The notes beneath the pieces were generated by a model. The model saw nothing but the letters and a program-made list of their open reading frames with translations. It was not told the DNA's origin and made no database searches. From contig JAJZMB010000162.1 in the NCBI GenBank assembly GCA_021803205.1, forward strand, positions 20,718-84,717: a stretch of DNA of 64,000 nucleotides, read 5' to 3'. Of this stretch, positions 15,423-60,155 are shown one piece after another (positions within the stretch are counted from its first letter, which is position 1; each line of letters begins with the position of its first letter). Source of the DNA: Bacillota bacterium. GTDB lineage: Bacteria > Bacillota > Sulfobacillia > RBS10-35 > JAJYVN01. The position numbers were made by a program, and so were the translations under genes.

Positions 15423-17171
15423 ATGAAGCCGTTTTTGATCACCGATTGCGGAAGCACCACGACCAAGGCACTGCTGATCGGAGGAGACCGGCCGCAGGAG
15501 GCGCACTTGGTCGCCTCGGGAGAGGCGCCGACGACGGTGGAGGCACCTTATGCCGACGTCACGGTCGGCGTACTGGCAGCCATCGCCGCGCTCGAGGAGG
15601 CCTGCGGTCTCCACCTGCGCGTACCGGCCGGAACCCGTCCCGATGCGGCTGCGGCGGACTACCTGTCGACATCCAGTGCCGGCGGCGGGCTGCAGATGTT
15701 GGTGGCAGGCGTTGTCGGGCGGTTTTCCGCCGCCAGCGCCGAACGCGCGGCCCTGGCGGCCGGGGCGATTGTGCAGCGTACCTTCAGCGTGGAGGACGGT
15801 CTGGACGCGCATGAGCGCATCGCCGAACTGCGCCGGCTCCGCCCGGACATGGCCCTTCTGGCCGGTGGGACCGACGGTGGCGGCGTGACTCACGTGGCGG
15901 AGATGGCCGAACTCCTGCGCGCAGCCGCACCGGAGCAGCGATTCGGCGGCGGAATGAGGCTGCCGGTGGTCTTCGCGGGCAACACGGCCGCTCGACCGGC
16001 GGTGGTGTCCGTCCTGGGTGACCGATGCGACCTGCGCCTGGTGGACAACGTGCGGCCCGACCTGGAACGCGAGCGGCTCAATCCGGCGCGGGACGCCATC
16101 CACGAGCTGTTCATGGATCATGTCATGGCCCGCGCACCGGGATACGACCGTCTCTCCGCGTGGGTCGCCGCACCAGTGTTGCCCACCCCGGCCGCTGTGG
16201 GCGTCACTGTGAGGGCCGTCGCGGAGCGGCTCGGGCGCGACGTGCTGGCCGTGGACATCGGCGGGGCCACCACGGACGTCTTCAGCGTGACCTCCGGCCG
16301 CTACCATCGGTCGGTGGGTGCCAATTTCGGCATGAGTTACAGCGCCACCCAGGTGCTGCGCGAGGCGGGTGCGGGCGCCCTCGCCCGCTGGCTGCCGCTG
16401 CGCATGGGTGACCGAGAGATCTCCGATCGTATTGCCAACAAGATGGTCCGGCCCACCACAGTTCCGGCGACGCCCGTTGACCTGCTTCTGGAGCAGGCCC
16501 TGGCGCGCGAGGCCCTCCGCCTGGCGCTGGCGCACCACCGGCGGACATTACCGCCGGCCGCACCGCAGGCGGGTCGTCGACGTCTGGGGGATTCCCTCGC
16601 CGGACGCCGTGCTGGCGCTGAATGCCCGGTGGGAGGTTTGAGTGTATTCGGTCTGATCCTCGGCAGCGGGGGAGTGCTCTCCCATGCCCCCCGGCGTGCG
16701 CAGGCGGCAATGATGCTCCTGGACGCCTTCGAACCGGTCGGAGTGGTGCGGTTGGGCGTGGACAGCGTCTTCATGCTGCCGCACTTGGGGGTGCTACGCG
16801 GGCGCTGCGCCGAGGCGGCGGATGCCGCTTTCTGGCGTGACTGCCTCGTCCCGTTGGGGACTGCAGTCGCACCGGCCGGTTCAGCCTCGGCGCTGTCGAT
16901 CCTACTGCATCTCGCAGGCGGCACGCAGCGCCTGACGGTGCCCCGGGGCGGGCTGGTCCGAGTGCCGCTGGTCGCCGGGGAGGTGGTCCGTGCGGATCTG
17001 GCCCCAGGTCGTGGCGGGGATCTCGGCGCGGGTCCGGGCCGGCCGGTGCGGTCCGAACTGCACGGAGGAATGGTCGGTCTGTTGTTCGACTGCCGGGGCC
17101 GTCCCCTGCCTGCGCCGGAGCGGCCCGCCCAAATGGCCGCCTGGCTCGCGGCGGCCGGGGCGTGGCCATGA
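15423..17171 (+). CDS. GlmL/MutL-family (glutamate-mutase-accessory-like) ASKHA ATPase
   Basis: The N-terminus MKPFLITDCGSTTTKALLIGG is present. A second phosphate-binding loop VDIGGATTDVFSV is present. Confidence 0.6.
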   Translation: MKPFLITDCGSTTTKALLIGGDRPQEAHLVASGEAPTTVEAPYADVTVGVLAAIAALEEACGLHLRVPAGTRPDAAAADYLSTSSAGGGLQMLVAGVVGRFSAASAERAALAAGAIVQRTFSVEDGLDAHERIAELRRLRPDMALLAGGTDGGGVTHVAEMAELLRAAAPEQRFGGGMRLPVVFAGNTAARPAVVSVLGDRCDLRLVDNVRPDLERERLNPARDAIHELFMDHVMARAPGYDRLSAWVAAPVLPTPAAVGVTVRAVAERLGRDVLAVDIGGATTDVFSVTSGRYHRSVGANFGMSYSATQVLREAGAGALARWLPLRMGDREISDRIANKMVRPTTVPATPVDLLLEQALAREALRLALAHHRRTLPPAAPQAGRRRLGDSLAGRRAGAECPVGGLSVFGLILGSGGVLSHAPRRAQAAMMLLDAFEPVGVVRLGVDSVFMLPHLGVLRGRCAEAADAAFWRDCLVPLGTAVAPAGSASALSILLHLAGGTQRLTVPRGGLVRVPLVAGEVVRADLAPGRGGDLGAGPGRPVRSELHGGMVGLLFDCRGRPLPAPERPAQMAAWLAAAGAWP

Positions 17172-18199
17172 ACGCCTCTTCTGGGCTCATCGTGTCTCCG
17201 GACCGGTCCGTGGTGCGCCGACGGCGGTTGCCAGTCTCCGGGGAAGTCCTGGTGACCGAGGGGGCTACCGTGCGCGCGGAGGATATTGTGGCACGGGCCA
17301 TGCTCGAGGGGCCGCTGCTGCCGGTACCGGTGGCGGGGCTCCTCGGATGCGAGCCCGCAGGGGTGGCGCGCCTGCTCACCGTGACTGAGGGGATGGCGGT
17401 GCGGGAGGGCGACGTGCTCGGACGCAGCCTCGGCATCTGGCGTTTTGGGGCGCGGGAGGCGCGCGCGCCCATGGCGGGTACGGTGGAACGCGTGTCTCCG
17501 ACCACCGGCCAGATCACCCTGCGCGGTGCCTCCCGCGCCCTGGAGGTCAGGGCGCACCTGCCTGGCGTCGTCTCTGCCGTCTCGCCGGGGGAGGGTGCGG
17601 ATATCATCTGCCGAGCGGCGCAGGTGCAGGGCGTCTTCGGAATCGGGGGAGAGACGCGTGGCATATTGTCCACGGAAGCCTTGCCGGGAGCGGTGTGGCT
17701 GCTCCGTACGGCCGACGGTGATGACCTCCGGCGGGCCGCGGACGCCGGGGTTGCGGCCGTCGTGGCCGGCGGCATCGGCTATGCGGACCTGGGTGTGGTC
17801 CACTCCCGCCGGTCTCCGGTCGTCGTGGTGCTCACCGAGGGCTTCGGCGATCAGCCCATGGCAGACCGGACATGGAACATTTTGCGCGTGCACTTGGGCC
17901 GTGCGGCTGCGGTAGACGGCACGACACAGATTCGGGCCGGTGTGGTCCGCCCGGACGTGGTCATACCTCGTTCCGGGGAAGGGCGCCCCCTACCCTCCGG
18001 CCCACCTCCGGAACTGCGGCTGGGCATTCGGGTGCGCATCGTACGCGAGCCCGGACTCGGCCGTTGCGGGCGGGTCCTGCAATTGCCGCCACTGCCGCGG
18101 ACGGTGGACAGTGGGGTGGTGACGCGTGTCGTGCTGGTGGCGCTGGATGGTGGAGGGGTGCAGACCGTGCCACGCGCCAATGTGGAGGTGGAGTCCTGA
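17162..18199 (+). CDS. conserved hypothetical protein, translationally coupled to the GlmL-like gene
   Basis: It overlaps the upstream stop by 10 nt. GC3 is high. There is no family I can name confidently. Confidence 0.5.
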   Translation: MAMNASSGLIVSPDRSVVRRRRLPVSGEVLVTEGATVRAEDIVARAMLEGPLLPVPVAGLLGCEPAGVARLLTVTEGMAVREGDVLGRSLGIWRFGAREARAPMAGTVERVSPTTGQITLRGASRALEVRAHLPGVVSAVSPGEGADIICRAAQVQGVFGIGGETRGILSTEALPGAVWLLRTADGDDLRRAADAGVAAVVAGGIGYADLGVVHSRRSPVVVVLTEGFGDQPMADRTWNILRVHLGRAAAVDGTTQIRAGVVRPDVVIPRSGEGRPLPSGPPPELRLGIRVRIVREPGLGRCGRVLQLPPLPRTVDSGVVTRVVLVALDGGGVQTVPRANVEVES

Positions 18200-26180: not shown

Positions 26181-27998
26181 TCAGTCGGCCGGTCCGGGCG
26201 CCGTAATGTAGACGAAGTCCCGGGAATCCGGCGACAGGTAGCGACTTCCTGGCCTGACCATGTTCGACATGAGCGCCGTGCCGAGCACTGCCGAGGAGCC
26301 CGGTTGGACTGGACGGTAAAAGTTGAAGGTCACCCAGTAGCTGTTGATGTCCAGTTGCATCGCCCGTCGCACCCCCATCAGGGTGAAGACCCGGGCGAGT
26401 GTGCGCGCCGTGACCGGAACACCAGCCGCGTACACGAGGTTGCCCCGCCCCGTGAGCGCGAGTCCGGACCTCCACACCCGTACCGCGCTACCCACGGTGA
26501 TACCCCAGGCGATACCCTGGTCGACGCCGAGGGTGGCACGCCCATGATCGACCAGCAGGTCCAGGTTCTGCAACAGGCTCCAGGGTGCGGGCGATGCCGG
26601 AATCTCGGTGCCCCAAGTCCCGAGGGCCACCTGATAGGAGCGGTACACCGCGAGCGTAGCGAGTCCCGCGGTGGGCTGCAGGTACCACTGCCCAGCGGCG
26701 CGGAATCCGAATCCGTTATATCGGCCCTGCAACCGCTTGAACCCGCCGTTGAAGGCCGCCAGCAACCGCGACCGGGCCGCCAGCGGCACTTCGCCGGTTC
26801 CGCGGAGGCCGCTCGGCGCTTGCGGGTGCTGCGTGCCGGCGACCAGATGCAGGTGGACGGCTCTGGTGTTGATCCATACCAGATCCACCCGCTCGTAGGG
26901 TCTTGTCGGGTCAGGCAGGACGAAGGTGCGCTCCATCGCCGGCTTTCCTTGTGCTGTCCCGCCGACCGGGACCCACACCCCTTCCCCCGGTGCCTGCGGC
27001 CAGCTCGGTGGTACGCGGAGGGCAGTGGGCCAGGTACTCGAACGCGCACGGCCCGACGCCGACGCTGATGAAGACGGCACGGCACCGGCCGATGTCGCGT
27101 CCCCGAGGACCGGCGCAGCCTGGCGTGCCGGCCTGTGGAACATCGAGTACAGGGTGCGGCGGACAAAGTCGCTGCTGCTGTACCAGAGGTCTTCGGCGAG
27201 AGCGACCGGTCGTGGTCCGAGCGTCCTGCGTACGCCTTCGACCAAGCCGACGAATACGTTGTTTCGGCTCGCGGTGGAGTGAGAAAGTACCAGCAATGGA
27301 GATGACGACACCCACTTGCCCTTGGCCAGGCTTAGCACAGCATTGTGCGGTCCTGCTGCCGGACTGAGCCATGCGACCGATATCTGTACGGCCTTGGACG
27401 GGAGGGTTGCCAGCCGAATCTTCGTAGCGGCCTGTGTCAACATGAAAGTGTGCGGCACGCCGGCCACGCCGCGGCCGACCATCACGGTCTGCGCCTGGGT
27501 GCCGGTTCCCAGCGCGTAGGCCAGATATTGCTGTATCCCGGTCAGGGCCAGCACGGCACCGCCGTGGCCACCAACGCGCTGCGTCGCGGGCCCGAATCGG
27601 GGGAACGCACTGCCCGCTGCGCCAAACCTCACCGCTGCGCCGTACAGCGCCCAAGGACTTCCCGCACGACGGGCAAGGGCCAAGACCTCTGAGGGCGTGC
27701 GTGAGCGACCCATGACCACGACCTCCGGGCGGCCGCGGTCGTTCAGCGCCACCGTTAGGCCCTGTTCCCGCAAGGCGGCTGCGGCGCTGACTACAAACGT
27801 CGGCATAACCGGCAGGACCTGCAACGACGGCCACCACTTGAGCGTCGCCACCACCAGCAGGAACGTAGCGCCAAGCGTGGGGACGAGCCGCCAAGGCCGC
27901 AGCCGCCTGCGTCTGCGCCGCTGTCCACGCCGAGTCGGGCTCGGCAGGTAAGGGATACGGGGCGTTCGCCGCCTGTGCGGGCCGAAATCGGCGTGCAA
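26181..27998 (-). CDS. membrane-anchored protein with a C-terminal phosphodiester glycosidase (NAGPA-like) domain
   Basis: It has an Arg-rich N-terminus followed by a TM helix. The C-terminal region (LAAFNGGFKRLQGRYNGFGFRAAGQWY ... ) resembles the phosphodiester glycosidase family. The N-terminal half is unassigned. Confidence 0.5.
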   Translation of the reverse strand: MHADFGPHRRRTPRIPYLPSPTRRGQRRRRRRLRPWRLVPTLGATFLLVVATLKWWPSLQVLPVMPTFVVSAAAALREQGLTVALNDRGRPEVVVMGRSRTPSEVLALARRAGSPWALYGAAVRFGAAGSAFPRFGPATQRVGGHGGAVLALTGIQQYLAYALGTGTQAQTVMVGRGVAGVPHTFMLTQAATKIRLATLPSKAVQISVAWLSPAAGPHNAVLSLAKGKWVSSSPLLVLSHSTASRNNVFVGLVEGVRRTLGPRPVALAEDLWYSSSDFVRRTLYSMFHRPARQAAPVLGDATSAGAVPSSSASASGRARSSTWPTALRVPPSWPQAPGEGVWVPVGGTAQGKPAMERTFVLPDPTRPYERVDLVWINTRAVHLHLVAGTQHPQAPSGLRGTGEVPLAARSRLLAAFNGGFKRLQGRYNGFGFRAAGQWYLQPTAGLATLAVYRSYQVALGTWGTEIPASPAPWSLLQNLDLLVDHGRATLGVDQGIAWGITVGSAVRVWRSGLALTGRGNLVYAAGVPVTARTLARVFTLMGVRRAMQLDINSYWVTFNFYRPVQPGSSAVLGTALMSNMVRPGSRYLSPDSRDFVYITAPGPAD

Positions 27999-49211: not shown

Positions 49212-49853
49212 ATGCGGTGGCTCAGGGTACTGGCTGTGATCCTCGCGACAGCGGTCGGTCTGGTCTATGGAGTGGTGGGTGCCGCCACGGCGGCGGCGGC
49301 GCCCACGGTATCTCTCGCGTACGGGAACGGGACGACCGGCGCCGCCACGGCGACGGCCACAACGGCGCCGACGCTATCGGTGGCGAGCAACAGCAAGCTC
49401 GGTTCCATTCTGGTGGCGTCCAACGGGATGACGCTCTATCATTTCAGCAAGGACTCGGCCGGTGTCAGCAATTGCACGGGCGCCTGCGCGAAACTCTGGC
49501 CGCCGCTGACGGTCACGGGGACTCCGAGTGCCGGTGCGGGTGTGACCGGTAAGCTCGGTACGATCAAACGCTCCAACGGCAGCCTGCAGGTGACGTACAA
49601 CGGATGGCCGCTCTACTACTTCAGTGGGGACAACAAGCCCGGTGACACCACCGGGCAGGGCTTCAAGAACCTCTGGTACGTCGTTTCGCCCACGCTGGCT
49701 GTGGCGACCGCCGCCACCACCACGAAGGCCACGACGACCGCGACGGCAACGCTGCCCAAGACGGGGAGCGGTCCGTGGCCCATGGTGGCCGGAATCGTCC
49801 TGCTCATCACCGGTGCTGGCTTGGTCCTTGTGCGGCGCCGCCGTGCGGCGTAG
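49212..49853 (+). CDS. LPXTG-anchored surface protein with two COG4315-type Y-x-F/W-x-x-D repeats
   Basis: A signal peptide is present. The repeats are LYHFSKDSAGVSNCTGACAKLWPP and LYYFSGDNKPGDTTGQGFKNLWYVV. The sorting signal is LPKTG, then a TM helix, then RRRRAA. Confidence 0.6.
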   Translation: MRWLRVLAVILATAVGLVYGVVGAATAAAAPTVSLAYGNGTTGAATATATTAPTLSVASNSKLGSILVASNGMTLYHFSKDSAGVSNCTGACAKLWPPLTVTGTPSAGAGVTGKLGTIKRSNGSLQVTYNGWPLYYFSGDNKPGDTTGQGFKNLWYVVSPTLAVATAATTTKATTTATATLPKTGSGPWPMVAGIVLLITGAGLVLVRRRRAA

Positions 49854-53608: not shown

Positions 53609-54151
53609 ATGTGGGTGGCGCGGCGGTCGGTGGCGCTCGGGGGCCCAGGCAACGGAGATCGGTGGGGGAAGGACGACGGCGAGCGCGCGGATCATGCGCT
53701 GCGCCATTTCCGGACGTGGGCCTGGATCACGGCAGCGGCCACCTTTGTGCTGTTGTTGTTAGGCGCGGGGGTCGTCGCGAACGGCGCCGGTTTGTCCTGT
53801 CCCGGCTGGCCCCTGTGCGGGGGGCGCGTGGTGCCGGTCTTTTCGGGCGTGGTGGTGGTGGAGTGGTCGCACCGGGTGGGCGCGCTCGTGGTTACGGCGC
53901 TCAGTCTGATCACGGCGGCGGCTGCTCGCCTGCTGCATCGTCAAGGGCCCTGGACCGGTCTGAGCCTGACGGCTGTGGGCCTGCTGGCCATGCAGGTGGT
54001 CCTCGGGGCCGTGGTGGTGGAGACCAACCTCACACCCCTGCTGGTCGTGGCGCACCAGGGGCTCGGCATCGCGCTGCTCTGCCTCTGGCTGGTGGCGGCC
54101 ACGATTCCCGGGCGACCGCGCCACAGGGTCGCCTCCGGCGGAACGGTTTAG
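53609..54151 (+). CDS. short four-TM membrane protein with a CtaA/COX15-like CPxWPLC motif
   Basis: GLSCPGWPLCGG sits in the loop after TM1, as in heme A synthase. The protein has only 180 aa, one four-helix half. Confidence 0.4.
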   Translation: MWVARRSVALGGPGNGDRWGKDDGERADHALRHFRTWAWITAAATFVLLLLGAGVVANGAGLSCPGWPLCGGRVVPVFSGVVVVEWSHRVGALVVTALSLITAAAARLLHRQGPWTGLSLTAVGLLAMQVVLGAVVVETNLTPLLVVAHQGLGIALLCLWLVAATIPGRPRHRVASGGTV

Positions 54152-54232
54152 GATGTAGGCGCGTGCGAACGGAGCACAAATGCCGTCAGTGCAGCGGCAG
54201 CCGGCGCCGCGTGCCCGGCCACGATCGTGCCC

Positions 54233-56101
54233 TCAGCCGCCCGCCGCCCGGGTTGAGGCGATCCGGTTCGTTGCCGTGCGGTGCGCCGCCGCCGACCCCG
54301 GGGCGCCAGCGGGCGTGGAAGTCGGGACCGGGGTGGCACGGAAGCCGCCGGGCGGGGCCGTGTTTCCGGTTCCTGCTCCTGCTGCGGCGCCTGCGGTCAC
54401 GCGCAAGTAGGTGCCTCCGTTAAAGATCCAGCGCTCAGGTGAGCCCGTGCCCTGCGGCACAAGGATGGTATAGGGCATATCCTGTGCGGTCTGGACCAGC
54501 CGCGGGGCCGCGGTGCTACCAACACCCACCATCTGGCCGATCAGTCGCGCCCGTGCGGTTCCCAGCCGGTAGACGGCAACAGCGCTGCCGGCGGGGGCGC
54601 TGGCGGTCTCAGGGGGCAACACCGTTTGCACCACCAAAGCATTCGAACCGTCGCCGGTCAGATCCCCGCATGCCACAGGCACAGTCCCCCCCGCCAGGCC
54701 CGGGAGCGCGATGCCGGTCAGCGGCATGCCTTCTGGCCGGAGCACGGTCACCGTGGAACTCCGCGCCTCGAAGGTGAAGCCGTGATTGTGTATCGCCCGC
54801 ACCGGACCCACCCACCAATGCACACTGTCACCGGCGCAGGAGAAGGCTCCACGCATCCATCCACGGGTCGCTGGGGGCGATACGTGGAACAGCAGCGGTG
54901 GGCGGAACGTCACAGGCCGAATGCCGGACAGCACCGGGCCGGAGATGCCGGGGCCGACGGTGTATGCCAGGACGCGCACAATGGCCCCCGCTCCCCCGTC
55001 TCCCGGATCGGTCTGCCCCGTGGCGGTTGCGGCTGCCTTCCCAACGGACGGCCTCCCACCGGTCGATCGTTCTGTAACGATGACTCTAGCGCGTCCCCCG
55101 GCCAACGCCCACGCGTCGATAATGGTGAAACGCAGGGACGGAGCGGGCGCGGCCCGGGTCGGCATGGCGTTCCGGAATGCGACCCGCACCGTGTGCAGTA
55201 CATCCGCCCACGCCGCGTGCCAACGCCCCTGGAGGAGCGCTTGCCACGGCGTCATCCAATCCGCGTGTCCAAGCGCCCGCCTAACGCGCCGCCACGCCAC
55301 TTGGTGGAGTTTGCTCCAGGCACCGGCCAGACCGGTCGGGGCCGGCGTCGGGGACCGAGGGCGCAGCAACGCCGCTTCATGCGTCGCCACCAGGGCCTTG
55401 GCGGCCGCCAACGATACTGGTCGCACCGCTGAAGTGGTCCGCCGCAGCCGCGCGTCCACAATCAGCCGCTCGGAGTCCCACGGCCCTGCGCAGGTGACAA
55501 GCTGCAGAGTGGCAGGGCCGCCGTGCGGACGCACCGCCGCCGCGTCAGACGGGGCCACCCGTTGGGATCCGGTGACCGCATAGGTGAAGGTGCCACCGGG
55601 TGTCTCGAGTAGGATGGCATCCCCTTGGCGCAGGCGGTTCAGGTGCTGGAAGACGGAGCCCCAGACGTTGACGTGCCCGAAGATGACGGCATTGCCCGGT
55701 GCTCCCGGCAACGCCGAACCCTCAAGATGAGCCGGACCGCGCTGGAGGAGCCCCTCCCAGACGGAGGCGTCGAAGGTGAGCCCCTCCAGCACATAGGAGT
55801 CCACCCCGATGGCGGGGATCACCAACCTGGCGAGGGGCTGTCCGGGCGGTACCGCTGGGGCCGAGGCCGGCAGAATCGCCGCAGATGCCGCCGCGGGTGA
55901 AGTGCCCGTACCTGCAGGGGCCACGACCGTGACCAGCGGGGCGGTCGGAGCCGGAGGGTTCGGGTACAACGCGGTGCGGCGCTCAGCCGCCAGGAATTGT
56001 TGCGCCGCCTGTTGCTGGGCGAGCGCATTCCACTGCGCGGACCACAGGGGTGTGGTGGCCACAGCCACACCGACCACCAGGGCGGCCAAGCCGGTCAACA
56101 T
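54233..56101 (-). CDS. sortase-family transpeptidase with a C-terminal extension of about 400 aa
   Basis: An N-terminal TM helix is present. The sortase core PAIGVDSYVLEG ... AVIFGHVNVWGSVFQHLNRLRQGD ... TLQLVTCAGPW has the catalytic His, the TLxTC Cys and the Arg region. The remaining about 400 aa are unassigned. The 255-aa N-terminal extension in the track ORF is rejected. Confidence 0.55.
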   Translation of the reverse strand: MLTGLAALVVGVAVATTPLWSAQWNALAQQQAAQQFLAAERRTALYPNPPAPTAPLVTVVAPAGTGTSPAAASAAILPASAPAVPPGQPLARLVIPAIGVDSYVLEGLTFDASVWEGLLQRGPAHLEGSALPGAPGNAVIFGHVNVWGSVFQHLNRLRQGDAILLETPGGTFTYAVTGSQRVAPSDAAAVRPHGGPATLQLVTCAGPWDSERLIVDARLRRTTSAVRPVSLAAAKALVATHEAALLRPRSPTPAPTGLAGAWSKLHQVAWRRVRRALGHADWMTPWQALLQGRWHAAWADVLHTVRVAFRNAMPTRAAPAPSLRFTIIDAWALAGGRARVIVTERSTGGRPSVGKAAATATGQTDPGDGGAGAIVRVLAYTVGPGISGPVLSGIRPVTFRPPLLFHVSPPATRGWMRGAFSCAGDSVHWWVGPVRAIHNHGFTFEARSSTVTVLRPEGMPLTGIALPGLAGGTVPVACGDLTGDGSNALVVQTVLPPETASAPAGSAVAVYRLGTARARLIGQMVGVGSTAAPRLVQTAQDMPYTILVPQGTGSPERWIFNGGTYLRVTAGAAAGAGTGNTAPPGGFRATPVPTSTPAGAPGSAAAHRTATNRIASTRAAGG

Positions 56102-56272
56102 CCATGCGGCTCCGACGCCCAAGCGGGCCGCGCGGGACGGCGGAGCGAGGTGCCGGGAGCGCCGGGGCTTGGTTGGTGCGTCCCCGCGCCTCCTTCTGTG
56201 GGGATGGCGCCGCGCCGCCCTTCTGCTGCCGGGGAAACTCTCCGCGCGTGTCGTGCCCGACGTTCCCGTCCT

Positions 56273-56682
56273 CAGCGGCTCTCGCCGCGCATGCGCCGCC
56301 AGCCCCCGACCACGGCCGCCGCGCCCAGCAAGGCCAGTGCTCCGCCGGCTAGCGGCAGCAGCGGGTTCAGACCGGTCTTCGGTATGGACGTGTTGCTGCC
56401 GGGAGATGCGCCGGTGCTGGTCGTCGCTTAAACCGCGGAGGCGGACGAGGCGCCGGATGCGGCGCTGGGCGAGGATGTGACGCTGGGCGAGGATGTGACG
56501 CCGCTGGACCCCAGCGCGCGGCTGCCGGGGGCGGAAGTGATCGGCGCGTTTGCCGGGGCTTGCGCCGTGCCGCAACCCGCGGCGAGAAGCAGGGCAGCTC
56601 CGAGAATGCCGCCTGCCAGCAGGCGGGAGGGAGCCCTGGATGCTGCGGAGCCGTGCGCCCGAGCGAAGAGGTGCGAGATCAT
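56273..56682 (-). pseudogene. candidate sortase substrate, with signal peptide and IPKTG sorting signal separated by an in-frame TAA
   Basis: 56682-56431 encodes MISHLFARAHGSAASRAPSRLLAGGILGAALLLAAGCGTAQ followed by a Ser/Thr-rich segment, ending at a TAA (56428-56430). It continues in the same frame as ATTSTGASPGSNTSIPKTGLNPLLPLAGGALALLGAAAVVGGWRRMRGESR to a TGA at 56273-56275. That second part is a complete LPXTG-type sorting signal. Confidence 0.4.
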
Positions 56683-57185
56683 AGAGCACAGACCCCCTTG
56701 TCAGATATCCGCTGCTATCGTGTGTGCATCCACCCCCGGCTTCAACGGCCGCTAACGCAGACCATGCCTGACGATACAGCATTCGGGGGCCGACCGTCAG
56801 CGCCGGGGTGCCGCGGGTGCGCTGTGTGCGGCGGTGGTCACCGCGCTCGCCCGGCGGTCTGCCCACATCGAGGATGCGGAGACGGCCGCACGGGTTCCGA
56901 CGCCGACGACGGCTCTAAGGTTCCCTGCAGCGGTGACGTTCGCGCCGGAACGGACTAAGCGACCCGCCTGTGGCCGCAGCGACGTCGGATGGTCCGGTGT
57001 GACGGACGAAGCAAAGGTTGGCAACCGGACTGCCGGATGCGCGAGGCGGCAGCGTGCGATCCCCCCGCCTGGACCGAGGACCGCGCGCCCACGCAGTTGG
57101 AGGGGGGGTCACAGAGGGCAAGCGGGGGCAGCGTCGGCGGGCCGGGGAGGAGGCTCTCCCGGCCCCCTCCCGAAGGTTCGCCGCA

Positions 57186-60155
57186 CTACGCCCCGGGGAA
57201 CATGTCCGTGATTTCCAGGGGGGCGGTGCCCAATGCGCGATTGCCCTCTTCGAGCATCCGCCGGCTTGCCACCACGCAGACGGCGCTCCGTGGAAGCCCC
57301 GCCTCCAGTACCGCCAGTAGGGCCTGCTCCACCGACTCCGGCTTGGCGCCCAGCATGGCCTGGTGCCGGGCGTCGCGCATCTCCGGGGTGAGGCCGGCGA
57401 TGTGGCGCTGCAGCGCCGAGCCCGTGGCCTCGGCGGGACGGATCGGCCGTTCCCCCTCCTTGAGGGTAGAGATGATCGCCCGGTCCACGTCTGTCTGAGT
57501 CCAACCGGCGCCGACGACATAGTCCCGGACCGCGGCAAACACCTGCAGGGTGCGCGCCACATGCGGATCCTGCCAGGAGAGCAGCGACATATCCCCGCCG
57601 AGGGCGTCGTAGGAGCAGGATCCCCCGTAGGCGGTCCCTCTGAAGCGGATCTCAGGCCGCACATACTCCACGGTGAGGAGGTGGGCGCCGACGGTGAGCA
57701 GGGGGGAGTCGGGATGCGCGTAAGCTGGTGCAGGGAATACCTGTGCCGAGTACGCGACCTGCAGCGGGGCGGCAAGCCCCGTCCGGTCGGGCGGCTCCGC
57801 GGGGCGTGGGTCGGACGCGTCGGGCACACCCTTGCCGAGGCGCCCGGCCCATCGCCGCAAGGCTTGGCGCACCGAGTCACAGGCGATGGCCGAACCGGTG
57901 AAGCTCGCCACCAGGCGCCCGGACGCCGGTAGAGCGTCCCGAATGCGCTCGACCTCCCCCATGACCCGGGTGTACTCGGTCTCGAAGTCCTTGTTCAGGC
58001 GCTCCAGCAGGTGCAACTGGGAGACGCCGCCCACCAGTTCCCCCAGGTAACCCTCCGTGCTGAGCGAGCGTGCGGCGTGGCGCACGGCTGTCGCCGTTGC
58101 CCCGTTGACCAGTCCGGTGCGCGTGCCGGCCAGGGATTGGGCGAGCACGACCCGCAGTCGTTCCCGGTCGCGCGGATCCGTGGCAAAGAGGAGATCCTCA
58201 AGCACCCCGAGGGCATCCTCGATCTGATCGTCGAGCGCCTTGAGGGTGAACCGCAACCGCCGGAGGCTTGCCGCACTGGCTCCGGCCGACCGCCCGAGCA
58301 CGGGCCAGCACAGGATCCCGCCGGTGGATGCGGCGACGCGGCCTGCAACGTGCTCATAGTCCATGCCGGCGGCGCCAAGCTTGTGCACGGACTCCAGGTA
58401 GCGGGGCACGTACGGCCATTGCTCGACGGTCAAGGCGGTGGCCTCGAGATCGAGCATCAGGTAGTTCACGCCATTGGTGAAGAGGTCGTTGCGCAGCAAC
58501 TCCACGCCCGGAGCGGGGCGTTCGACCGAGGTGGGGATGTGGCGGGGACGGCGCGGGACGTCCGCGACCCGGAGTTGGGGCAACAGAGCTATCGCCTCGG
58601 GCGGATTGGGCGTGCCTGAGCCGCGTTCCACATCGGCCGAGACGGCCGCGATGCGTCGCACCTCCTCGTCGCTCAGACGGGCACGGACCCGAGCCATCTT
58701 GGCGTTGAACGCCGCTGTGGCGCGCGCCTCACAGTCGTCGCTCGGTCGCAGCACCGTCAGGAGCCGGTGAGGGTTGTCGAGGAGCCGCTCCCGGATCAGG
58801 CGGTTGAAGAGTGACGGATCACGGCGATAGTGCTCCTGGCACGCTTCAAGGTGCGGGCGCATCGACGCGAATGCCAGCGGGTCCGCGCCCAGGCGCCACG
58901 GTCCGAGCACTCGCCAACCCAGGTGCAGGGGGAAGTGGGACTGAATCTCCAGGTGGCCGTATGCCGCTTGGTGAAACGCGGCTTCGACGCGTTCGCGGGG
59001 GATCTCCGCCTGGGCGATGGCGCGCAGCGTTTCGAGCACGAGACGCTCGAAACGGTCGGCGCGGTCCGGCTCGCTCCCCTTCAGTCCGACCTGGTAGATC
59101 CCCTCGGGCCCCACCGCGCGGTAGCCCGTATGGTGAGGCGCCTGCCCAAGTTTGGAGTCCACAAGGGCCTTGCGCAGTGGAGCCGCCTCATTGCCGTCCA
59201 GGATCCAGTCCAATACCTCGAAGGCCATGTCCTCTTGGGGATCGATCGCCTCGGCGGCCAGCCACTGCAGGAGCAGATATGTCTTTTCGGCGAGGGGCTC
59301 TCCCTCCCCGATCTGATACTCGTCTTGTACGCGTCGGGGCGTGGCCCAGCGGATCTGGCGCCCGACTGTGGCATCGTTCGGGCGGTGCTCGAACTCCTGG
59401 AGGCGTTCTGCCAGGAACGCCAGGTGCTCAGTGAGCGGGATGTCTCCATAGGTGAAGAAGTAGGCCTCGCTGGGATGGTAATATGTCTGGTAGAAGCGGC
59501 GCAGGTCTTCGAAGGTCAGGTCCGGGATGGCGTCCGGTCGCCCGCCCGAATCCCGGGCGTAGATGGTGTCGGGTAGAAGGGCTCTCTGAGAGCGGTTGGC
59601 AAGTATCACATCCGGACGCGAGTAGTAGCCCTTCATTTCGTTGTACACAATGCCGGTCTCGGTCAGGGCGCCGGAGGGATCCAACGGGTCGGCGGGCGTC
59701 AGGCGGTGGCCCTCGCGAAGGAACGTTTCCTCCGTGAGCAGCGGATGAAACACGGCATCGAAATACACGTCGACCAAGTTGAACAGGTCCTGTTTGACCG
59801 TACTGGCCACCGGATAGGTTGTGTAATCTGGTCCGGTCATGGCGTTGATGAAGGTGCCCATACTCATCTTCAGCATTTCGAAGAACGGCTCCCGGACGGG
59901 AAAGCGGCGCGAGCCGCCAAGCACCGAGTGCTCCAGGATGTGCGGCGCGCCGGAATCATCCCACGGGACTGTCGGCAGCGTCACGGAAAACAGGTTTTCG
60001 TTGTCCTCCGCCTGGATGTGTATCAGACGGGCGCCGCTGCGCCGATGTACGACGCGATAGGCCACCGCGCGTAAATTCGGGAGCGGCGTGATCGCCTGCA
60101 CCTCGAAGCCGTGCACAACACGTCCGGTCTGCAGGGCGGCGTCAGGTATGACCAT
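57186..60155 (-). CDS. M16C-family (presequence-protease-like) zinc metallopeptidase
   Basis: The inverted zinc motif HILEHSVLGGS is present. The protein has about 990 aa. An M16C-associated middle domain is present. The ATG at 60155 has the RBS GAGAGGAG. Confidence 0.7.
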   Translation of the reverse strand: MVIPDAALQTGRVVHGFEVQAITPLPNLRAVAYRVVHRRSGARLIHIQAEDNENLFSVTLPTVPWDDSGAPHILEHSVLGGSRRFPVREPFFEMLKMSMGTFINAMTGPDYTTYPVASTVKQDLFNLVDVYFDAVFHPLLTEETFLREGHRLTPADPLDPSGALTETGIVYNEMKGYYSRPDVILANRSQRALLPDTIYARDSGGRPDAIPDLTFEDLRRFYQTYYHPSEAYFFTYGDIPLTEHLAFLAERLQEFEHRPNDATVGRQIRWATPRRVQDEYQIGEGEPLAEKTYLLLQWLAAEAIDPQEDMAFEVLDWILDGNEAAPLRKALVDSKLGQAPHHTGYRAVGPEGIYQVGLKGSEPDRADRFERLVLETLRAIAQAEIPRERVEAAFHQAAYGHLEIQSHFPLHLGWRVLGPWRLGADPLAFASMRPHLEACQEHYRRDPSLFNRLIRERLLDNPHRLLTVLRPSDDCEARATAAFNAKMARVRARLSDEEVRRIAAVSADVERGSGTPNPPEAIALLPQLRVADVPRRPRHIPTSVERPAPGVELLRNDLFTNGVNYLMLDLEATALTVEQWPYVPRYLESVHKLGAAGMDYEHVAGRVAASTGGILCWPVLGRSAGASAASLRRLRFTLKALDDQIEDALGVLEDLLFATDPRDRERLRVVLAQSLAGTRTGLVNGATATAVRHAARSLSTEGYLGELVGGVSQLHLLERLNKDFETEYTRVMGEVERIRDALPASGRLVASFTGSAIACDSVRQALRRWAGRLGKGVPDASDPRPAEPPDRTGLAAPLQVAYSAQVFPAPAYAHPDSPLLTVGAHLLTVEYVRPEIRFRGTAYGGSCSYDALGGDMSLLSWQDPHVARTLQVFAAVRDYVVGAGWTQTDVDRAIISTLKEGERPIRPAEATGSALQRHIAGLTPEMRDARHQAMLGAKPESVEQALLAVLEAGLPRSAVCVVASRRMLEEGNRALGTAPLEITDMFPGA

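Follow-up and report, generated by a model that had tools for sequence, protein, structure and literature searches.

A two-gene sortase cassette of an uncultured Bacillota: a small candidate substrate with a lipobox and a sorting signal, interrupted by a stop private to one assembly

The 64,000-nucleotide stretch of DNA analysed here (the window; contig JAJZMB010000162.1, positions 20,718 to 84,717, from an uncultured, high-G+C (69%) lineage of Bacillota) carries on its minus strand a small gene, the putative substrate gene, followed by the gene of a sortase with a long C-terminal extension. Judged by comparison with other copies, a private single-base change truncates the predicted substrate before its sorting signal; it is probably a loss-of-function variant and no regulated recoding. 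The intact gene pair is conserved in relatives as a cassette whose small product unites two targeting signals, a lipobox at one end and a cell-wall sorting signal at the other.

The interrupted substrate gene

56270..56682, minus strand: substrate gene, 136 codons when intact and interrupted here at codon 85 (translation); its product has a lipoprotein-type signal peptide, a spacer rich in Ser, Thr and Ala and, at the C-terminus, the IPKTG cell-wall sorting signal
56572..56574, minus strand: lipobox cysteine Cys37 (in LAAGC, followed by G), the predicted site of diacylglycerol attachment
56428..56430, minus strand: premature TAA; where the window has A at 56429, all other copies read have C (codon TCA, Ser)
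56371..56385, minus strand: IPKTG sortase recognition motif, downstream of the premature stop in the window

As it stands in the window, the substrate open reading frame (ORF) has 84 codons, includes the lipoprotein signal and closes at the TAA 56430-56428. Translation of the minus strand from 56682 to 56270 gives MISHLFARAHGSAASRAPSRLLAGGILGAALLLAAGCGTAQ...SASAV, then the TAA, and then ATTSTGASPGSNTSIPKTGLNPLLPLAGGALALLGAAAVVGGWRRMRGESR in the same frame up to a second stop, the TGA at 56272-56270. The N-terminal part (MISHLF...LLLAAGCGTAQ...SASAV up to the TAA) starts with a signal peptide that has a basic n-region with R16 and R20, followed by LLAGGILGAALLLAAG-C37, which supplies the h-region and the lipobox. 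The part beyond the TAA ends in IPKTG, a hydrophobic helix LNPLLPLAGGALALLGAAAVVGGW, the basic tail RRMRGESR and the stop, which is the LPXTG-type arrangement at the extreme C-terminus. An original prediction made from the letters of the window had described just this, a signal peptide or lipopeptide ORF ending at the TAA with its frame running on into IPKTG and RRMRGESR, and translation bears the description out. (The Pfam anchor model PF00746 scores the sorting signal of this small low-complexity protein at 14.3 bits, against a cut-off of 20.) Because the arrangement is retained in the 10 other family sequences compared, the sorting signal is judged to be no chance ORF, and the identification of the small gene as that of a sortase substrate, also proposed at the outset, gains support from the same conservation. 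The lipoprotein signal had been mentioned merely in passing in that prediction; the combination of lipobox and sorting signal is a conserved and unusual feature of the family.

The stop is private to the window

A sortase identical to that of the window (P0001) is present on 15 public contigs (four NCBI metagenome-assembled genomes (MAGs), several ENA assemblies and two Logan assemblies), and the upstream gene is called intact on all 15, with 136 amino acids or, in one, 130. Conservation of the TAA in relatives had been named beforehand as a test, and the outcome is clear: the codon at 56428-56430 is TCA (Ser) in 9 of 9 conspecific contigs whose sequence was read, six of them in DNA alignment A1, the other contigs of the 15 being covered by gene call. 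In the DNA alignment every base after the stop is identical to the intact alleles. Exact look-up of the 84-residue truncated product in the sequence collection returned no record.

The window and five conspecific loci have 13.9 kb in common, with 23 variable positions, and column-by-column comparison finds two of these to be private to the window: 56429, which creates the stop, and 61308, a synonymous ACA/ACG transition. The remaining 21 polymorphisms of the window are each common to subsets of the other assemblies. On the strength of this comparison the window represents a real strain or assembly of the same species that differs slightly from the others (~99.9% identity), because just 2 of 23 variable sites are private to it and the one that does not make the stop is a synonymous transition.

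The substrate gene is itself polymorphic within the species. Its spacer contains an 18-bp tandem repeat, GTCACATCCTCGCCCAGC, that is present in two copies and reduced to one in the L001 assembly (56477-56512 region); the contig with the 130-residue variant is without one copy of this repeat. Position 56501 is the site of a Gly/Asp polymorphism. Three variants (repeat, Gly/Asp and nonsense) thus fall in 0.41 kb of substrate gene, compared with 23 in 13.9 kb overall.

TAA is an ordinary stop in the window, because it closes 5 of the 46 genes predicted by a codon-usage gene model, beside TGA and TAG. A scan of the entire 64-kb window against Rfam gave no family at the gathering score, that is, no tRNA, rRNA, riboswitch or leader anywhere and hence neither a recoding element nor a riboswitch around the stop; scanning 54000-57200 for promoter and terminator consensus sequences gave no match.

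What the stop represents

The likelier origin of the stop is a real and very recent nonsense allele of one strain or population, in which the TCA of Ser85 has become TAA by a C-to-A change. What competes with it, at lower but substantial probability, is a sequencing, consensus or assembly error confined to one assembly, in which case the organism would hold the intact TCA allele and a functional substrate gene. A lesion of a single base, private to the window, absent from 15 other same-species contigs and followed by sequence the same as that of intact alleles is what such an error would look like. Further points weigh in the same direction, against a real allele: a real mutation and a consensus or base-call error are inseparable in assembled sequence without reads; related MAG contigs of other species were assembled at very low coverage (1-2x, according to their contig titles); and on the plus strand the change reads G to T, the classic artefact of oxidative damage (8-oxoguanine). 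On the other side, the private synonymous transition and the 21 polymorphisms common to subsets of assemblies mark the window as a real, distinct strain, and the variability of the substrate gene in the population (the repeat deletion in L001, Gly/Asp at 56501) makes a natural loss-of-function allele plausible. The strain-like behaviour of the window and the evident polymorphism of the substrate gene incline us towards a real variant over a base error.

Programmed readthrough of the stop, yielding a released short isoform and a wall-anchored long one, is very improbable. The idea draws on the frame being open after the stop and encoding a perfect sorting signal, but an open downstream frame is simply explained if the change is recent. 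The stop is not conserved, conspecific copies reading TCA where the sequence was read and every orthologue examined being uninterrupted; TAA is, moreover, recognised by both release factors and is the least leaky of bacterial stops, and the window uses it as a regular gene terminator. Readthrough was rejected on finding no in-frame stop in six adjacent loci of other species, in eight database proteins or in conspecifics, and an alternative genetic code was rejected on the stop-codon usage of the window. Of the three explanations put forward in the original prediction, pseudogenisation and sequencing error therefore stand, and programmed readthrough falls to the sense codon in conspecifics and the uninterrupted orthologues. 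In practical terms, the in-frame TAA carries no special meaning, being a one-base lesion or error in one assembly, and conspecifics should be checked before recoding is invoked.

A conserved cassette of substrate and sortase

Homologues of the whole sortase, extension included, number 13 proteins with 38-60% identity, most of which align over some 90% of the query. In L007/8, L009, L010, L017, L018 and L020 a small gene built like the substrate gene lies directly upstream of the sortase gene, and it is always intact; the count takes in every locus with upstream sequence available, that is, six other species-level loci. Spacing varies: at one extreme (L020, L010) the two genes overlap or lie 6 bp apart, and at the other (L007, L009) several hundred bp separate the small gene from the called sortase start. 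Only substrate and sortase are conserved, and the neighbouring genes otherwise differ between loci.

A profile of the small protein retrieves just 8 true relatives from 5.8 billion (5.8e9) proteins. These have 119-150 amino acids, all are uninterrupted, and 8 of 8 carry a lipobox and (I/M)PKTG; substrate precursors in the family span 117-150 residues. In the aligned orthologues (alignments A3 and A5) two motifs are invariant: A-G-C, which closes the signal peptide, and P-K-T-G, which precedes the C-terminal helix. All 11 sequences tested fit a lipobox pattern modelled on G+LPP, Gly occupies position +2 after the lipobox Cys in all but one sequence (L009, which has Ala), and the sorting motif is IPKTG or, in one species, MPKTG. 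Between the Cys and the Thr of the sorting motif lies a spacer of 54-94 residues, 82-97% of them Ser, Thr, Ala, Gly or Pro, with almost no charged or bulky hydrophobic residues. Because of this composition the spacer is predicted to be without a foldable domain, and the conserved information of the protein sits in its two targeting signals.

That the small ORF should be no real gene, or no sortase substrate, its lipobox and IPKTG having come together by chance in a G+C-rich low-complexity region, is highly unlikely: the sub-threshold Pfam anchor score, the low-complexity middle of the protein and the fact that no Pfam family is recorded for any relative would fit, but the same architecture immediately precedes the orthologous sortase gene at seven species-level loci, its A-G-C and P-K-T-G do not vary whereas the spacer is free to diverge, and a second protein of the window carries a matching LPKTG motif.

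The cassette can be thought of as a rare variant of the sortase-substrate theme for which a dual-anchor mechanism is plausible. A literature search of incomplete coverage found no report of a domain-less protein family uniting lipobox and sorting signal.

There is also a distant branch (L011, 729-3368 and 3518-4531; also P0012 and P0017) in which the sortase has a longer extension, for 830-880 amino acids in total. Instead of the small lipobox protein, L011 has as its adjacent substrate a protein of 337 residues, encoded downstream of the sortase, that combines an ordinary signal peptide with a Thr/Ser-rich stalk and VPKTG. MAGs with the extended sortase have further sortase loci, therefore at least two sortases per such genome. 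L013, L015 and L016 (and P0014) are of this kind; these three loci match the sortase domain only (aa 5-219, 41-51% identity), and L014, from the MAG that also has L012, aligns with the extension too.

The sortase and its start

54233..56101, minus strand: sortase gene as called, 622 aa; N-terminal transmembrane helix, sortase domain and C-terminal extension (Pfam and NCBIfam, alignment A2)
55445..55825, minus strand: sortase catalytic domain, aa 93-219 (PF04203, E 7.5e-27)
55675-55673, 55492-55490 and 55468-55466, minus strand: catalytic His143, Cys204 and Arg212, respectively (family alignment A2)
56102..56269, minus strand: Arg-rich in-frame stretch ...RRRRGDAPTKPRRSRHLAPPSRAARLGVGAAW, upstream of the called ATG (translation)

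The sortase ORF runs from the ATG at 56101 to the TGA at 54235-54233. PF04203 (94 bits, cut-off 26.6) is the sole Pfam match in the protein, and TIGR01076 (48.9 bits, cut-off 39.35) is the only NCBIfam model to score above its cut-off. H143, C204 (in LQLVTC) and R212 are invariant in the 12 family members of alignment A2; the sortase gene was thus rightly recognised at the start, with its catalytic H, TLxTC and R regions. Sequence matches in the PDB are confined to aa 67-235 (8t28, 5go5, 5go6 and 5cuw, E 1e-8 to 1e-13). Classification with profile hidden Markov models, as had been suggested, assigns no class; class E is closest, its model NF033747 giving 79.7 bits against a cut-off of 160.

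The Arg-rich stretch between the substrate gene and the called ATG (...RRSRHLAPPSRAARLGVGAAW) is in frame with the sortase, and its RHLAPPS..AAR motif is kept at the amino-acid level in orthologues. Because of this conservation the stretch is probably translated, as the true cytoplasmic N-terminus of the sortase. In this species there is no ATG or GTG between the substrate stop and the ATG at 56101, and the sole TTG (~56122) lies downstream of RHLAPPS; a CTG overlaps the substrate TGA (gCTGAgg), and AGAAGGAGG occurs at about 56200. A mechanically delimited ORF of 877 residues includes the sortase; its frame is not that of the substrate, and it is open across the substrate gene solely because of the high G+C content. 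Fusion of substrate and sortase by frameshifting was considered and rejected, the L007 orthologue having a stop between the genes (sortase-frame ORF from 5599/5659).

The C-terminal extension

54392..55429, minus strand: predicted extracellular extension, aa 225-570; helical segment, beta-sandwich and a beta-rich domain (AlphaFold2), the last containing PVACGDLTGDG and both invariant cysteines

The extension comprises ~350 residues and is strongly conserved across aa 225-570 in an alignment of 12 family members, with cysteines C422 and C478 invariant and the motifs PVACGDLTGDG and LIGQ strongly conserved. We infer that it must be extracellular, because the sortase domain is extracellular and the extension comes after it. 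Searched on its own against 1.84 billion cluster representatives, the extension gives 15 matches, 13 of them at E 1e-10 or better, which makes this a very rare sortase family, and all relatives stronger than ~1e-13 for which domain data are available are sortase fusions. The weakest matches include a giant repeat protein with GLUG, PKD-like and cadherin-like domains (P0019) and an FG-GAP repeat protein (P0020), the latter aligning only to extension residues 240-269 (PVACGDLTGDG; about aa 464-493 of the sortase), that is, to one FG-GAP-like repeat.

Neither a Pfam scan nor a PDB sequence search matches the extension, and comparison of its structure with the PDB by Foldseek yields nothing below E 1e-3, with TM-scores of at most 0.29, to propeller blades. 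Membership of the FG-GAP/VCBS beta-propellers was accordingly rejected on the missing Pfam match, the single repeat-like unit and the low propeller TM-score. Modelled alone by AlphaFold2 (predicted local distance difference test, pLDDT, 81.3), the extension forms a helical segment and two beta parts, one a sandwich with a disordered insert and the other a larger domain; the full-length model (predicted template-modelling score, pTM, 0.40) is too uncertain between domains to place the extension relative to the active site.

By sequence comparison the fusion of sortase and extension is real and no artefact of a missed frameshift. That the extension might prove to be a separate downstream gene after frameshift correction had been raised as an objection, and the fusion is found in every strong relative; the initial description of a C-terminal extension of roughly 400 residues unrelated to sortase accessory domains agrees with the null results in Pfam, PDB and Foldseek searches and with its fusion in relatives.

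A possible mechanism for the intact cassette

The two signals suggest a doubly anchored substrate, one end of it held by membrane lipid and the other by peptidoglycan. After export by Sec, the precursor would receive its lipid on Cys37 and be processed by signal peptidase II. The product of the second gene, a predicted membrane-anchored cysteine transpeptidase of the sortase family with its family-specific extracellular extension, would then cleave IPKTG between T and G and link the threonine to a peptidoglycan precursor. The product would be a thread of ~55-95 residues, probably O-glycosylated, with its N-terminus in membrane lipid and its C-terminus in the cell wall. The truncated allele of the window would instead yield a 48-residue lipopeptide for which no wall linkage is possible. 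Lipidation, glycosylation, the transpeptidation target and the tether function are what we infer from the encoded signals.

Taken as a whole, the proposal that the intact cassette is a sortase-dependent, doubly anchored envelope tether, with the extension positioning the enzyme or selecting the attachment site, is tentative, and we regard it as rather unlikely to hold in full. Several observations count against it. The -3 position of the lipobox is Ala or Thr and not Leu. In other Bacillota, lipoprotein release from the membrane has been connected with a Gly at +2 (PMC3415414), and the mature product may therefore not remain attached to lipid. The sortase falls short of every class-specific NCBIfam cut-off, those for classes C, D, F and GN included. 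Its start was placed by the gene call at ATG 56101, and an upstream start and coupling to the substrate gene are possible; if the sortase is translationally coupled to the substrate gene, the premature TAA would lower sortase expression too.

If both signals are used, these deep-branching Bacillota would covalently stitch the membrane to the wall with a sortase, and no report of sortase-made membrane-to-wall stitching was found in a literature search of incomplete coverage. Such a device would be relevant to the cohesion of envelope layers in lineages near the monoderm/diderm transition, and if the host lineage is diderm or thin-walled, the cassette would amount to a hitherto unrecognised means of tying membrane to wall.

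Second substrate and genomic context

49212..49853, plus strand: second sortase substrate, in which an ordinary signal peptide and an LPKTG anchor flank two Lipoprotein_15 (COG4315) repeats

An intact LPKTG protein with COG4315 repeats had been noted 5 kb away from the cassette, and profile searches confirm both of its features: the Lipoprotein_15 repeats match at E 1.2e-34, and the LPKTG anchor scores 28.8 bits with TIGR01167 against a cut-off of 15.9.

The rest of the window is housekeeping chromosome, with genes for CCA-adding enzyme, alanine racemase, GlyQ/GlyS, RecO, TsaD and FolD; an M16 PreP-like peptidase, a SigA-like sigma factor and a small acid-soluble spore protein (SASP) are also encoded. 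Neither lgt nor lsp turned up among the genes of the window that were scanned. The presence of the SASP gene in the neighbourhood suggests that the host is an endospore former. Convergent with the sortase gene is a 180-residue ORF (53609-54151, plus strand) that matches the C-terminal quarter of COX15-CtaA (profile positions 239-320 of 322) and is kept on all conspecific contigs; it is either a truncated or split ctaA (heme A synthase) or a short paralogue. For two further predicted genes, 26181-27998 (minus strand, 605 aa) and 17162-18199 (plus strand, 345 aa), Pfam gives nothing at E 1e-5 or better; the 345-residue one comes after a gene for a PF13941 'MutL protein' (15423-17171).

Comparison with known systems

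Cassettes of a dedicated sortase and its cognate substrate are familiar from YhcS/YhcR of Bacillus subtilis and from SrtC of B. anthracis with BasH/BasI; another dedicated pair is formed by the class GN 'marine' sortase (TIGR03784) and the one target it has. The present cassette resembles these in that a sortase gene stands beside the gene of a protein with a matching C-terminal sorting signal. It differs in the ~350-residue extension of the sortase, which is found nowhere else, and in a substrate that is domain-less and has a lipoprotein signal.

The catalytic part of the sortase is closest to the class E/C enzymes (Streptomyces SrtE1, 5cuw; 5go5/5go6), which provide the best profile and PDB matches and likewise have an N-terminal membrane anchor and the His, Cys and Arg residues. 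However, the class E score reached here is half of the 160-bit cut-off, the substrates have I/L-P-K-T-G (MPKTG in one species) where those of class E have LAXTG, the host belongs to the Bacillota whereas class E is actinomycetotal, and known class E enzymes are without a C-terminal extension.

Among other proteins associated with sortases, GspA of Actinomyces oris is a glycosylated, wall-anchored substrate of the housekeeping sortase SrtA (PMC6381275), and SafA is a small membrane protein whose conserved gene lies beside actinobacterial sortases (PMC9282373). SafA is comparable with the present small protein in that its conserved gene adjoins that of a sortase, but it is a transmembrane partner of the sortase and no substrate, and has no sorting signal. 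GspA is, to our knowledge, no lipoprotein, and its gene does not lie beside that of the sortase.

Braun's lipoprotein (Lpp) of E. coli forms a helical trimer in the outer membrane, and its C-terminal Lys is attached by L,D-transpeptidases (PMC11449479). Membership of the Lpp family was rejected: the substrate spacer is almost entirely Ser, Thr, Ala, Gly and Pro, there is no C-terminal Lys but a sortase signal instead, and the sequences are unrelated. The likeness to Lpp, as the present protein is pictured here, is functional only: a small envelope protein with a lipid anchor at its N-terminus and its C-terminus bound covalently to peptidoglycan, so that it ties membrane to wall. Should the cassette indeed make a doubly anchored tether, which is doubtful, that tether might be regarded as a Bacillota counterpart of Braun's lipoprotein, put together from entirely different parts.

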